A DNA stretch of 64,000 bases, taken from positions 256,001-320,000 of the forward strand of contig CBDDIJ010000003.1 in NCBI GenBank assembly GCA_965228855.1, written 5' to 3'. The stretch is from Candidatus Obscuribacterales bacterium. GTDB lineage: Bacteria > Cyanobacteriota > Vampirovibrionia > Obscuribacterales > Obscuribacteraceae. This document shows positions 8,970 through 12,000 of this stretch, piece by piece; the stretch's first letter is position 1; the number at the start of each line of letters is the position of its first letter. Position numbers and translations under genes: made by a program. The notes beneath the pieces are model-generated. The model searched no databases and was not told the DNA's origin. It was given only the letters and a program-made list of their open reading frames with translations.

Positions 8970-9292
8970 CTTCTCCGCTCTCGTCCGCGCCGACCGCCCG
9001 CTGCCCCCTTGCTCCCCTGCTCCGCTACTCCGCTACTCCGCTACTCCGCTACTGCGCCTATTCTCCTCTCGGTATGTTTAGAAGGGATTTCGTATGCCGC
9101 CTGCGGAATGGGTTCCAGAGGTATTCCTCCCGAAGTATCAAATTCGCCTCGGTCTAATACTGCCAGCGGAATAGTGGAGAGCGGAGAAGGAGTTGCTGGT
9201 GAGCGGAGAAGGAGTGGTGGAGAGGGAGAAGGAGTTGCTGGTGAGTGGAGAAGGAGTGGTGGAGTCCGCGGAGGTAGGGGAGGAAGGGGAGG
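8970..9292. repeat. Low-complexity C-rich/G-rich foldback region with short tandem repeats
   Basis: (GCTACTCC)~4 at ~9016-9052; 42-bp direct repeat GGAGAAGGAGTTGCTGGTGAG.GGAGAAGGAGTGGTGGAG at 9183 and 9225; 13-bp perfect inverted repeat 8970-8982/9177-9189. Confidence 0.75.
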
Positions 9293-9501
9293 TACGCGCT
9301 TTTGTCGTTGTGATCGGCGCGTGTCGAAACTGCCAATAAAGAGGATTAGGCAAACAGTTGTCGAGTGATTTCCGCTTTTGGGAATTTGCACGGCGTTTGG
9401 AGTTGAATTCGCTGACTGGCACGGCGCTTTCGGTGTTTTGTAGTTTGGGCGACCAAACCTCGAAAGAACTGGACGCCCATCGAAAACTTGGATATGATTG
9501 A

Positions 9502-9691
9502 TATTGATACCAATAACAGATGCACAGGACTACCTGCGGTGGTCCACAACAATTGTCTGGCACGAGGCATTTAGACCCTCGTTAATAGGTAGAAATTGAG
9601 CGGAGATTGCACGGCAACCTCCGTTGATGGTGGCGCATTTAGTACCACTACAACGGGTTGTCGGCTTTGCGTTGAGTGGCTGTCCATGCGA
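9502..9691 (+). ncRNA. Unrecognised structured element B, copy 1
   Basis: Closely similar to 10171-10361; series of hairpins with compensatory changes; G-U pairs favour the + strand; TATGAT -10 at 9493-9498. Confidence 0.6.
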
Positions 9692-9848
9692 ATCTTCGTG
9701 AAATCGCTGATAAAAATGCTGTAACTGTTCCAGTGCAGAATTGGCTTGTGGTTCCGGGTTTTTGATGTTTGTCTGGCTGGTCTTCTCTCCGATGGATAGC
9801 GGCTTTCGTCGGACGCTAAAAAATTTTCTTAAAACAAAAATGGGGGAC

Positions 9849-9877
9849 TTCCGCGCGGGGAATTCTGTTGGTATATT
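9849..9877 (+). promoter_or_regulatory. Sigma70-type promoter of element A copy 1
   Basis: TTCCGC-17-TATATT with a TG extended -10 and an upstream A-tract. Confidence 0.6.
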
Positions 9878-9880
9878 AGT

Positions 9881-10092
9881 AAATGAAGACGGTGAGTGAC
9901 TTGAAACGAAGCCACTTTGAGCCGAGGGGCAATGCGGAAACGGCAGGTTGGCGCCCAACCGGATACGACAGCAAGCAGCCCGCTAAGCGTGAAGGACTAG
10001 CTGAAGCGCTTTGAAATACTGAGCCTGTGCAACAGGCAGCTAGACGGTAGCTTGAGCACCACTGCAACGTAAGTTGGGTGGTGTTTTTGTTT
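9881..10092 (+). ncRNA. Unrecognised structured element A, copy 1
   Basis: ~95% identical to copy 2 by manual count; own promoter; multiple hairpins; 3' intrinsic terminator at 10056-10092. Confidence 0.75.
10056..10092 (+). terminator. Intrinsic terminator of A1
   Basis: GCACCACTGCAAC-GTAA-GTTGGGTGGTGT followed by TTTTGTTT. Confidence 0.8.
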
Positions 10093-10138
10093 GCGGATCT
10101 TTCTCAAAAAAATATGGTGCCAAGATGTGCAAAAGTCG

Positions 10139-10167
10139 TTTACCAGCGGCATGTTGTTGGGTATGAT
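10139..10167 (+). promoter_or_regulatory. Sigma70-type promoter of element B copy 2
   Basis: TTTACC-17-TATGAT; the -10 is identical to the one upstream of B1. Confidence 0.55.
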
Positions 10168-10170
10168 AGT

Positions 10171-10361
10171 TATTGATACCAATAACAGATGCACCGGACT
10201 GCCTGCGGCGGTCCAAAATAATTGTCTGGAACGGGCATTCTAAATCCCGTTGAAATAGGTAGAAATTGAGCGGAGTTTGCACGGCAATCTCTGTTGATAG
10301 TGGCGCATTTAGTACCACTAAGACAGGTTGTCGGCTTTGCGTTGTCTGGCTATTCATGCGA
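10171..10361 (+). ncRNA. Unrecognised structured element B, copy 2
   Basis: Repeat of 9502-9691 at an offset of 669-670 nt, with structure-preserving substitutions. Confidence 0.6.
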
Positions 10362-10518
10362 CTCTCGAAGATCTGTGGTGTCGAATGTGGTGCGTATTTC
10401 TCCTGCCGGTGCAGTGCTGTTGTTCAAGCGTTCGCTGGCGGTTTGAAAAATATAGAAGCGCATGGATACTCATACTTGGCTTGCTCAAAAAAGTTTTTCA
10501 AAAACAAAAAAGGGGGTC

Positions 10519-10547
10519 TTCCCATGTGCATGATTCGTTGATATAGT
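10519..10547 (+). promoter_or_regulatory. Sigma70-type promoter of element A copy 2
   Basis: TTCCCA-17-TATAGT, TG extended -10, and an AAAACAAAAAA UP-like tract. Confidence 0.65.
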
Positions 10548-10550
10548 TAT

Positions 10551-10763
10551 AAATGAAGACGGTGAGTGACCTGAAACGAGGTCACGTTGAGCCGAGGGGC
10601 AATGCGGAAACGGCAGGTTGGCGCCCAACCGGATACGACAGCAAGCAGCCCGCTAAACGTGAAGGACTAGCTGAAGCGTTTTGAAATACTGAGCCTGTGC
10701 AACAGGCAGCTAGACAGTAGCTAAAGCACCGCTGCAACGCAAGTTGGGTGGTGTTTTTGTTTT
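10551..10763 (+). ncRNA. Unrecognised structured element A, copy 2
   Basis: Repeat of A1; terminator GCACCGCTGCAAC-GCAA-GTTGGGTGGTGT-TTTT at 10726-10763. Confidence 0.75.
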
Positions 10764-10996
10764 GGAAAGTTTTTCTGAGTCACCGCTGACGGTGCGCGCC
10801 GCCAGGCGTCGCTGCTCCCGTCTCCTGGCTTGCTGAGCGCTTCTTGGCAGGCGAGACTGGATTCACGTGAGAAGGTTCGAGCAGCAATACTGGTCTGTTG
10901 TTCAATGGATGCGAGAACAACTGCGTTTCCGAAACCCTTATGGATAGCTCTTATACATGGTTCCAGAAAGATTTTCTGAAAACAAAAAAGGGGGTC

Positions 10997-11025
10997 TTCC
11001 CACACGCATGATTCGTTGATATAGT
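10997..11025 (+). promoter_or_regulatory. Sigma70-type promoter of element A copy 3
   Basis: TTCCCA-17-TATAGT, TG extended -10, upstream A-tract. Confidence 0.65.
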
Positions 11026-11028
11026 TAT

Positions 11029-11241
11029 AAATGAAGACGGTGAGCGACTTGAAATGAGGTCGCTTTGAGCCGAGGGGCAATGCGGAAACGGCAGGTTGGC
11101 GCCCAACCGGATACGACAGCAAGCAGCCCGCTTAGCGTGAAGGACTAGCTGAAGCGCTTCGAAATACTGAGCCTGTGCAACAGGCAGCTAGACGGTAGCT
11201 TAAGCACCACGGCAACGCAAGTTGAGTGGTGTTTTTGTTTT
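11029..11241 (+). ncRNA. Unrecognised structured element A, copy 3
   Basis: Repeat of A1/A2; terminator GCACCACGGCAAC-GCAA-GTTGAGTGGTGT-TTTT at 11204-11241. Confidence 0.75.
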
Positions 11242-11529
11242 GGCAGAGTTTTTTGTTCTGTGGAGTTTTCGTGTCAGCGACATTATTTGTGTCGGCGGAG
11301 TTTTCGTATCCGCGCGGACCATGTTTTGCAGAGTACTTCGTTTCTCAGTACTTATATATAGGAAGACCTTCAATCGCGTTTTTCCTCTAGACGGCCATCT
11401 ACAAGCTCATAAAATTCACTTCGATTTCCATCGCTTGGAGGGTGCTAAGATCCGCGCAGTAAGCCGGTTTTTGCCTCTAATCAGTGGCAACTTTGTATAT
11501 CTGTTTTCTATATTTTTGAGGGTAAATGA

Positions 11530-12000
11530 ATGACGGACAAGCTTCAAGTGAAAGTCGAGCGACTCGCGCACTGCAAAGAACTCCCTCGCTACGCCACCCC
11601 TGGCTCTGCCGGCATGGACCTGACCTTTGCTTCGGAAGAGCCGATCACGGTAGCGCCCGGCAAGCGCGCCAAACTCGCTACCGGTATCAAGCTTGAAATC
11701 CCGTTCGGATACGAAGCGCAGATTCGTCCCCGCTCGGGTCTGGCCGCAAAGGCGGGCATCAGCCTCACGAATTGCGTCGGCACAATCGATAGCGACTACC
11801 GCGGCGAAGTGATGGTTTTGATAATCAATCATGGCGACGAACCTTATACATTCAGTCCAGGTGAGCGTATTGCCCAGATGGTGATCGTGCCGGTTCCGGT
11901 CATCGAACTTGTTCAGGTCGAACAAGTCGCAGACACTGAGCGGGGTGAAGGCGGTTTCGGTTCGACCGGCAAAACTGCTCTTGCCGCCAACGGCGCTTAA
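11530..12000 (+). CDS. dut: dUTP diphosphatase
   Basis: GSAGMDL, IRPRSGLA, GTIDSDYRGE, RIAQMV and RGEGGFGSTG (motifs I-V). Confidence 0.97.
   Translation: MTDKLQVKVERLAHCKELPRYATPGSAGMDLTFASEEPITVAPGKRAKLATGIKLEIPFGYEAQIRPRSGLAAKAGISLTNCVGTIDSDYRGEVMVLIINHGDEPYTFSPGERIAQMVIVPVPVIELVQVEQVADTERGEGGFGSTGKTALAANGA

Follow-up and report, generated by a model that had tools for sequence, protein, structure and literature searches.

What are the three similar, closely spaced elements that stand ahead of dut in the genome of a Candidatus Obscuribacterales bacterium, and how might they act? They lie in a window of 64,000 nucleotides (nt), the whole stretch of DNA analysed here (assembly GCA_965228855.1, contig CBDDIJ010000003.1, positions 256,001 to 320,000), in which the gene order at the locus is tetR (minus strand), B1, A1, B2, A2, A3 and dut-dapB-asd-dapA-RNase J. 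The copies A1, A2 and A3 are the subject of this work; B1 and B2 belong to a second element, treated further below. An earlier, sequence-only reading of the window had taken A1 to A3 for copies of a structured, trans-acting noncoding RNA (ncRNA). Our data place them in the poplar-1 RNA family and point toward an RNA that probably pairs with itself, chain to chain, through a palindromic loop.

Identity of the three copies

All three copies match the Rfam family poplar-1 (RF03041) over the whole model, positions 1 to 141, with an E value of about 1e-29 and scores of 129.3 (A1), 133.5 (A2) and 129.5 bits (A3) at a gathering cut-off of 110.5, and they are the only gathering-level Rfam matches in the window. 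Their membership in the family is virtually certain. A1 and A2 are spaced by 670 nt and A2 and A3 by 478 nt (coordinate offsets from A1, +670 for A2 and +1148 for A3), with 86 to 90% identity over 292 nt. A 670-nt unit of B plus A has been duplicated (B1 with A1, B2 with A2), and A3 has no B element. The source genome holds six poplar-1 copies at three loci, which are 93 to 99% identical within a locus and 66 to 78% between loci.

The motif reportedly goes back to the supplement of Weinberg et al. 2017 and is said to have been first described from metagenomes, without a host. The word "poplar" is absent from the main text of PMC5737381 and was not found in PMC12510878 (text and two supplements) or in PMC8191799, and literature searches for poplar-1, RF03041 and Obscuribacterales combined with ncRNA terms gave one passing mention of poplar-1. 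The pseudoknot or the motifs described below may already stand in the supplements of PMC5737381 and PMC13085918. In any case, poplar-1 is already catalogued, without an assigned function, and the covariation of its palindromic loop is the new point here.

A predicted compact structure with a kink-turn and a pseudoknot

Helices were found by mutual information on a structure-blind alignment (MAFFT) and then counted over 122 rows. The input comprised 233 copies, 160 of them distinct, of which 123 were kept after removal of truncated and >95% identical copies; one aberrant locus (L112) was dropped, and three rows of locus L025 were replaced by A1 to A3. A wider set of 334 copies served for counts along a tree: exclusion of 25 copies under 180 nt left 309, and 17 copies were missed by the regular expression for the hairpin discussed below, which left 317. 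In the 122 rows, 97.1% of cells are paired, compared with 83.6% in shuffles and 30 to 39% in slid controls. Two-sided changes occur in 44 of the 52 pairs, a value reached in 0 of 500 shuffles, although this test is inflated by the relatedness of the rows. A predicted structure of about 205 nt with five helical domains is strongly supported by these counts (Table 1), and the check for covariation in homologs that the sequence-only reading had proposed comes out in favor of a structured RNA. Nineteen positions are invariant, and each chain would fold, we infer, into a compact shape that does not depend on protein.

The 5′ hairpin, P1, very likely forms a kink-turn, to judge from its sequence pattern. 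A kink-turn is defined by a three-base bulge followed by tandem G-A/A-G pairs between two helices (passages on folding in PMC8191799), and this pattern is present in 121 of the 122 rows and, by a stricter regular expression, in 283 of the 309 copies. The four pairs of the outer helix (9890-93/9921-24) never vary, and the inner four covary. Position −1b:−1n is C:G in 115 of the 122 rows; 3b:3n is G:U in all of them, a pair that falls outside the three folding rules given in the text of PMC8191799. The P2 arm encloses a two-fold symmetric internal loop, both strands of which fit a relaxed consensus in 118 rows. A Watson-Crick pair between R and C of this loop is not borne out, since R-C becomes A-C in 16 and 42 of the 122 rows and never A-U. 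A six-pair pseudoknot, predicted with near certainty from covariation and kept in the 309 copies, joins the P4 loop to the internal loop of P5. The Rfam model and our analysis agree on the helices of P2, P4 and P5, which are kept by compensatory change. The model does not contain the 5′ kink-turn hairpin or the terminator, it leaves the 3′ strand of P1 unpaired, and the cmscan structure line of RF03041 shows no pseudoknot.

Several details of the earlier reading hold. The 68-nt core that it had called invariant (9917-9984) is exactly the same in all three copies, and the base changes that it had listed for stem 1 of A2 and A3 and the replacement of G-C by A-U in the stem 9985-10011 are in the sequence. 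The change from GTAA to GCAA in the terminator loop is there as well, but the proposed retention of a GNRA tetraloop extends to just 66 of 122 homologs. Two of the hairpins that it had drawn, TGCG-GAAA-CGGCA and AGCTA-GACRG-TAGCT, had to be given up: the letters are present, but the pairing is not conserved (74.5% paired, with 498 of 500 shuffles as high), and these bases instead form the internal loop, the pseudoknot and helix P5. The poplar-1 family, the kink-turn, the pseudoknot and the palindromic loop had not been recognized.

A palindromic loop points to a homodimer

The tip of the P2 arm, hairpin P2c, is self-complementary to its axis. In 239 of the 317 hairpins extracted, pairing across the axis runs for seven positions from the center; P2c of A1 to A3 has one extra base, yet the six-base palindrome is kept. 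All 122 rows have complementary bases at both center pairs, and 0 of 500 shuffles score as high. Among the 309 near-full copies the inner pair is CG in 303, UA in 4 (two clades) and AU in 1, with one gapped row. On a tree built without those columns, this amounts to three parsimony changes, none of them a single substitution. The next pair outward is A-U in about ten clades. Across the axis G-U is common and A-C is rare, which argues for an RNA rather than a DNA palindrome. Furthermore, the center columns covary best with each other and not with any distant column, and the other loops are self-complementary far less often (P1 in 2, P5b in 9 and the terminator in 7 of 122 rows). By cofolding, the dimer is favored by an estimated 9 to 12 kcal/mol for A1 to A3.

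Since neighboring bases are unable to pair within one chain, covariation of adjacent bases points to a homodimer. Consistent with this, Kretsch et al. (PMC12286853) describe, in the passages on OLE and GOLLD, adjacent-base covariation in support of intermolecular bridges seen by cryo-electron microscopy (cryo-EM). The same source presents natural RNA homo-oligomers as rare and recently shown to be biologically conserved. On the strength of the covariation, poplar-1 probably forms a symmetric homodimer through P2c, in which the two chains would join either as a kissing loop or as a 14-bp strand-swapped duplex. The covarying palindrome turns this into a specific prediction, for which in vitro transcripts would suffice as a test, with no need to culture the host, and a self-assembling RNA of 205 nt with a kink-turn and a pseudoknot would be a practical cryo-EM target.

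Very probably independent transcription units

A G-rich box precedes 175 of 177 copies, with core positions 80 to 100% conserved, and in 169 of these 175 a −10 hexamer follows at 22 to 23 nt; the A-tract is conserved too. When the source genome was scanned with a promoter matrix, the top six matches were its six poplar-1 copies, a result that is partly circular because the matrix came from these families. Visual inspection did not reveal the G-rich box ahead of rRNA, tRNA, RNase P, transfer-messenger RNA (tmRNA) or signal recognition particle (SRP) genes. A further conserved box, presumably an activator site, was located by regular expression 90 to 93 nt upstream of the G-rich box in 63 of the 175 copies and is visible in more. 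A word resembling GT-N8-TAC, which we take to be the consensus for an NtcA/CRP-like reading of the promoter, lies 22 to 23 nt before the −10 hexamer; its right half and spacing are conserved, and its left half is kept in about 60% and lost in A1 to A3. The source genome has one CRP-family gene. At the other end, a covarying terminator hairpin with a U-tract is present in 122 of 122 rows. A simple terminator scan did not pick it up, probably because of its bulged G. The ends of the A1 transcript are placed by the −10 box and the U-tract.

Genes downstream of poplar-1 lie on the same strand in 36 cases and on the opposite strand in 31, with no recurring family. The copies very probably are independently transcribed units, and, as the sequences have it, complete transcription units are copied at the DNA level, promoter included. 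The earlier assignment to a trans-acting ncRNA rather than a cis leader is upheld by the covariation of the helices, the promoter and U-tract of its own, the lack of a preferred downstream gene and RNA contigs. One of its grounds, that no gene follows any copy, is wrong, as dut lies some 290 nt beyond A3 on the same strand; dut has a promoter-like site of its own at 11388-11415. A coding role was considered and rejected: a stop-free forward frame exists in 3 of 122 rows, so the codon-type conservation named earlier as a counterindication is not seen, and two overlapping minus-strand open reading frames (ORFs) have no Pfam match.

The promoter and terminator would also fit a base-pairing regulatory small RNA, and the pseudoknot of the P4 loop is reminiscent of the L2 pseudoknot of the SAM-I riboswitch, as might be expected of a cis-acting leader. 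We nevertheless give such roles very little credence, since conserved unpaired runs do not exceed 5 nt and leave no seed, and the genes downstream are unrelated, as often as not on the other strand; together, the missing seed and the missing linked genes argue against antisense and leader roles. Nor does the list of top covariations hold an alternative covarying pairing for the terminator.

A hint of expression comes from metatranscriptomes. RNA contigs from four runs (one per study), chosen from 24 listed because they contain the stretch, cover most of A1 and A2 and part of A3 with 0 to 1 differences and leave the 4.8-kb surroundings uncovered, except for two partial foreign matches. That element B and the flanking genes are without RNA contig cover in these four runs proves nothing. 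A drinking-water metatranscriptome preprint (10.1101/2025.10.18.683149) lists poplar-1, in the part cited here without a host name, among RNAs enriched inside cells.

Distribution within one bacterial order

With the Rfam model, 37 of 39 genomes of the same order gave matches (0 to 12 per genome), compared with 0 of 21 other members of the class. A 205-position model built here, run with stricter filters by which weak homologs could be missed, matched 31 of the 32 same-order genomes searched; among 118 other members of the class and 150 genomes of the phylum it gave no match. In a pattern scan of named genomes, at least 149 loci were obtained, of which 135 were true and 14 were dropped as chance matches; among the true loci listed, the labels are mostly Ca. 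Obscuribacterales or Melainabacteria. From metagenomes, 107 of 128 loci were true. Judged by these searches, poplar-1 is confined to, and near-universal in, Ca. Obscuribacterales, non-photosynthetic relatives of cyanobacteria. Nine true loci (five records) are labelled as other phyla, and further loci are named as oxygenic cyanobacteria. Six of the nine could be placed in the tree, where all nest among Obscuribacterales copies, and mislabelling or mis-binning is the likely explanation of the other-phylum labels. Tied to one order and equipped with a dedicated promoter, poplar-1 could serve as a lineage marker in metatranscriptomes and as an entry to the regulatory system of a group with almost no molecular genetics.

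Viral contigs gave 0 poplar-1 matches with a first pattern and, with a looser one, 1 true match in 10, which is cut off at the contig end. This match, at positions 1-176 of a 2.6-kb IMG/VR contig, is a 5′-truncated poplar-1 with a diverged 3′ end and may be host flank.

Genomes have a median of 4 copies, with a weak rise with genome size (rho of 0.41 over 40 related genomes, which are not independent). The site used most often has a divergent tRNA-Thr(CGT) gene on one side and dut on the other: tRNA-Thr stands beside 19 of the loci examined, some of them redundant, and a dut-like ORF is found at 27, with 21 distinct proteins. In the relatives G074 and G024 (L220 and L221), the interval from tRNA-Thr to dut is free of poplar-1; in G074 it holds what by eye resembles a toxin-antitoxin pair of the HigBA type. 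Another relative, G143 (C8:163000-182999), has a tandem array of ~2.2-kb units in which nine copies alternate with genes read divergently, most of them coding for Ser/Thr kinases. A link between poplar-1 and Ser/Thr kinases, prompted by this array, was rejected, as a kinase motif lies within 2.5 kb of 6 of the 74 copies outside it (12 of 80 if the array is counted) and the background in the source genome is 7.7%. By a simple regular expression, the source genome has 124 Hanks-type kinase catalytic-loop motifs, a very large expansion.

The variable loci and tandem arrays, the range of 0 to 12 copies, the correlation with genome size and the three family members that lack poplar-1 could all be expected of a selfish or mobile cassette, one that multiplies by duplication and whose expression brings the host no benefit. 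We regard this as most improbable. No transposase, integrase or reverse transcriptase was found in 132 of the 134 flanking ORFs (the two left out are very long), and no flanking inverted-repeat pair bounds a unit at the window locus. RNA-templated copying is excluded by the promoter being copied along. Furthermore, the position before dut is kept across genera, and selection at the level of the helices is purifying.

What might poplar-1 do?

That poplar-1 is functional we infer from its conservation. Multiple co-regulated copies suggest a need for quantity, and poplar-1 would act stoichiometrically, by its shape rather than by antisense pairing. In our model the dimer would bind an abundant protein and serve as its scaffold or decoy, as has been proposed for OLE RNA, and the kink-turn with the invariant outer helix of P1 would be the likely docking site. 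The step from the dimer to a protein scaffold or decoy we consider evenly balanced. The model as a whole, a dimeric scaffold or decoy RNA for an abundant protein that is OLE-like without being OLE, is tentative and falls just short of that.

Several observations weigh against it. At the level of the dimer, the inner-pair evidence consists of three independent changes, it is conceivable that the two bases form an unusual loop fold, and the cofolding minimum uses P2 in A1 and A2 and a different region in A3. The RNA data are contigs, which give neither level, strand nor ends. Three genomes of the same family (86 to 97% complete) gave no poplar-1 match even at E 1, and dut there has no copy ahead of it, which means that the RNA is dispensable in some lineages. 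As to a partner, no family encoded in the 132 flanking ORFs recurs as a dedicated one, and L7Ae (in 1 of 61 genomes), CsrA (in 2 of 39 same-order genomes) and TROVE (Ro60; in 6 of 39) are all missing from the source genome. L7Ae, CsrA and Ro60 were rejected as partners, being absent or sporadic among the genomes checked. The OLE-type partner bS21 is uninformative, as it is present in 59 of 61 genomes, with or without poplar-1.

With no protein partner found, the dimer could instead be one contact of a protein-free oligomer of the ROOL/GOLLD kind, in which GAAA-type loops dock into helices of other chains and the assembly has a structural or storage role or binds small ligands or ions. By the A-minor docking rule, the invariant tandem C-G pairs of P1 and the two GAAA-containing strands are suited to such contacts, and P2c is palindromic. 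There is precedent in PMC12286853, but the ROOL and GOLLD assemblies described there have five or more intermolecular contacts and poplar-1 has one evident contact; poplar-1 is also much smaller and is not phage-borne. We consider this reading unlikely.

Another alternative starts from the P2 loop, which might be an interdigitated double T-loop (two pentaloops, each with a trans pair of positions 1 and 5, that intercalate head to tail) stacked on the tRNA elbow, the dimer sequestering or presenting tRNAs in trans. In most rows both strands begin R-G-N-R-A, the G at position 2 is invariant, and there is no Watson-Crick closure. An AGAAA strand is found in the RNase P of the host as well, where we take it to lie at J11/12. 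The commonest poplar-1 locus is divergent to a tRNA gene, but tRNA genes are common insertion neighbors. The strands fit T-loop positions 2 to 5, in sequence, as set out in part of bioRxiv 2022.12.26.521914. However, position 1 is a purine where a T-loop usually has a pyrimidine, in A1 to A3 the second strand carries a U as its position 4, and a GAAA-tetraloop-like kink, as shown for J1 of raiA in PMC12968392, is an alternative fold. Moreover, no anticodon- or CCA-pairing element was identified. Binding of tRNA appears distinctly unlikely, and slightly more so the combined version in which an RNA-only homodimer displays two double T-loop platforms and two kink-turns to bind tRNAs or a tRNA-shaped partner in trans. 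If true, such a homodimer would add a fourth RNA class to those with a double T-loop; as a tRNA clamp or sponge it would be the first that is free-standing and dosage-controlled, and it would be specific to one order of non-photosynthetic cyanobacterial relatives.

Finally, the compact pseudoknotted fold and its invariant positions would also suit a ribozyme that cleaves, ligates or modifies a substrate in trans. This is very unlikely, as many near-identical copies suggest a stoichiometric need, whereas RNase P, tmRNA and SRP RNA are single-copy; no match to a ribozyme family turned up at E values as high as 10, and there was no sign of a variable guide segment. The idea that poplar-1 stands in for an absent housekeeping RNA was rejected, since tmRNA, SmpB, RNase P and SRP RNA are all present in the source genome. 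The tmRNA is at C2:2199557-2199945, with 137.7 bits in Rfam, and was not detected by ARAGORN.

Element B and other surroundings

Element B is a separate structured RNA candidate, in which 10 of 53 consensus pairs show two-sided changes among nine close sequences. It occurs in 5 of 7 same-genus genomes and in one other genus, in the loci seen always just upstream of the poplar-1 promoter, and has no clear U-tract terminator. In other genera (L038, L062, L102, L088, L202 and L024), different promoter-led, apparently non-coding stretches take its position, ~550 nt upstream of the dut-side copies, and the interval from tRNA-Thr to dut resembles a small-RNA island. Short tandem repeats lie between tetR and element B (8998-9053 and 9183-9264; 8-nt units and a 40-nt duplicate) and are roughly complementary in content. 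Elsewhere in the source genome there are dense tRNA arrays at C3:724518-727973 (21 ARAGORN calls) and C3:1529761-1530653 (5 calls), which include some odd anticodons and are possibly of phage or island origin.

Table 1. Features of the poplar-1 locus (window coordinates; structural elements as predicted for A1)
Feature	Position	Strand	Remarks
Element B1, separate structured RNA candidate	9505..9700	+	−10-like box 9493-9498; no Rfam match
Upstream conserved box	9749..9758 (A2 10421-10429; A3 10899-10907)	+	~92 nt before G-rich box
Promoter of A1	9829..9877	+	A-tract; G-rich box 9842-9850 abutting −35 position, conserved at 95-100% over 175 copies; −10 hexamer 9872-9877
poplar-1 copy A1, predicted transcript	9883..10092	+	Rfam part 9916-10054; own model R1 189.7 bits, 9887-10088; RNA contigs 9900-10066
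P1 hairpin with putative standard kink-turn	9890..9924	+	GA 9894-95; 3-nt bulge 9916-18; GA 9919-20
P2 arm	9927..9981	+	Helices 9927-30/9978-81 and 9933-35/9971-73, covarying
P2 internal loop, 10x10	9936-45 opposite 9961-70	+	Strands share consensus RGAAAC-NN-YA
P2c hairpin, self-complementary to axis	9946..9960	+	Center 9950-9955; predicted intermolecular kissing or duplex site
P4 hairpin	9983..10013	+	7/7 pairs with two-sided changes; loop 9997-10002 is 5′ pseudoknot side
Pseudoknot, 9997-10002 with 10038-10043	9997..10043	+	6/6 pairs two-sided; 97.0% paired
P5	10017..10049	+	Helices 10017-21/10045-49 and 10023-26/10034-37; carries 3′ pseudoknot side and conserved GCAA loop end
Intrinsic terminator, one bulged G	10057..10092 (A2 10727-10762; A3 11205-11240)	+	9/10 pairs with two-sided changes
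Element B2	10174..10368	+	Duplicated with A in 670-nt B+A unit
Promoter of A2	10512-10547	+	Predicted sigma-70-like site
poplar-1 copy A2	10553..10762	+	Rfam part 10586-10724; own model R1 193.8 bits; RNA contigs 10566-10716
Promoter of A3	10990-11025	+	Predicted sigma-70-like site
poplar-1 copy A3	11031..11240	+	Rfam part 11064-11202; own model R1 189.0 bits; RNA contig 11103-11190
dut (dUTPase)	11530..12000	+	Pfam; first of dut-dapB-asd-dapA-RNase J; marks commonest poplar-1 locus

Comparison with known RNAs

The CsrB/RsmZ sponges resemble poplar-1 in that there are several paralogues, regulated together, which have an upstream box in common and a terminator. Unlike in their hosts, CsrA is absent from the source genome and from 37 of 39 same-order genomes, and poplar-1 has just 0 to 3 ANGGA words per copy. 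Other classes were rejected: Y RNA, as the source genome and 33 of 39 same-order genomes have no TROVE and the ends of poplar-1 form separate hairpins; box C/D or other L7Ae-bound RNAs, given the distribution of L7Ae described above; and 6S RNA, as there is no 6S match at the poplar-1 locus. A weak 6S RNA candidate on contig C2 (813651-813889; 28.8 bits, below the cut-off) has paired ends and a sigma-70-like promoter and, at 239 nt, is longer than typical.

With T-box Stem I and the RNase P specificity domain, as covered in the passages cited from PMC4810234, poplar-1 would share the kink-turn and a possible T-loop pair. In contrast to a T-box, it has no downstream regulated gene or antiterminator, and the RNase P RNA of the host is a separate one. 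The raiA motif RNA (ModT) is of a similar size class and likewise pseudoknotted, free-standing and abundant (sections of PMC12968392 on the motif); it is a monomer of Bacillota and Actinomycetota, unlike the multicopy poplar-1.

The closest parallel is to OLE RNA, which, according to the part of PMC12286853 that deals with it, forms a homodimer via a palindromic tetranucleotide loop covarying at adjacent bases and has a kink-turn that is proposed to bind protein. OLE differs from poplar-1 in its length of ~577 nt, its occurrence in other phyla, its association with the membrane and its at least six proteins, and there is no Rfam match to OLE or raiA at the poplar-1 copies. We therefore use OLE as a works-like comparison only: poplar-1 has, like OLE, a palindromic loop with adjacent-base covariation and a predicted kink-turn, and its dimer is proposed here from sequence and cofolding.

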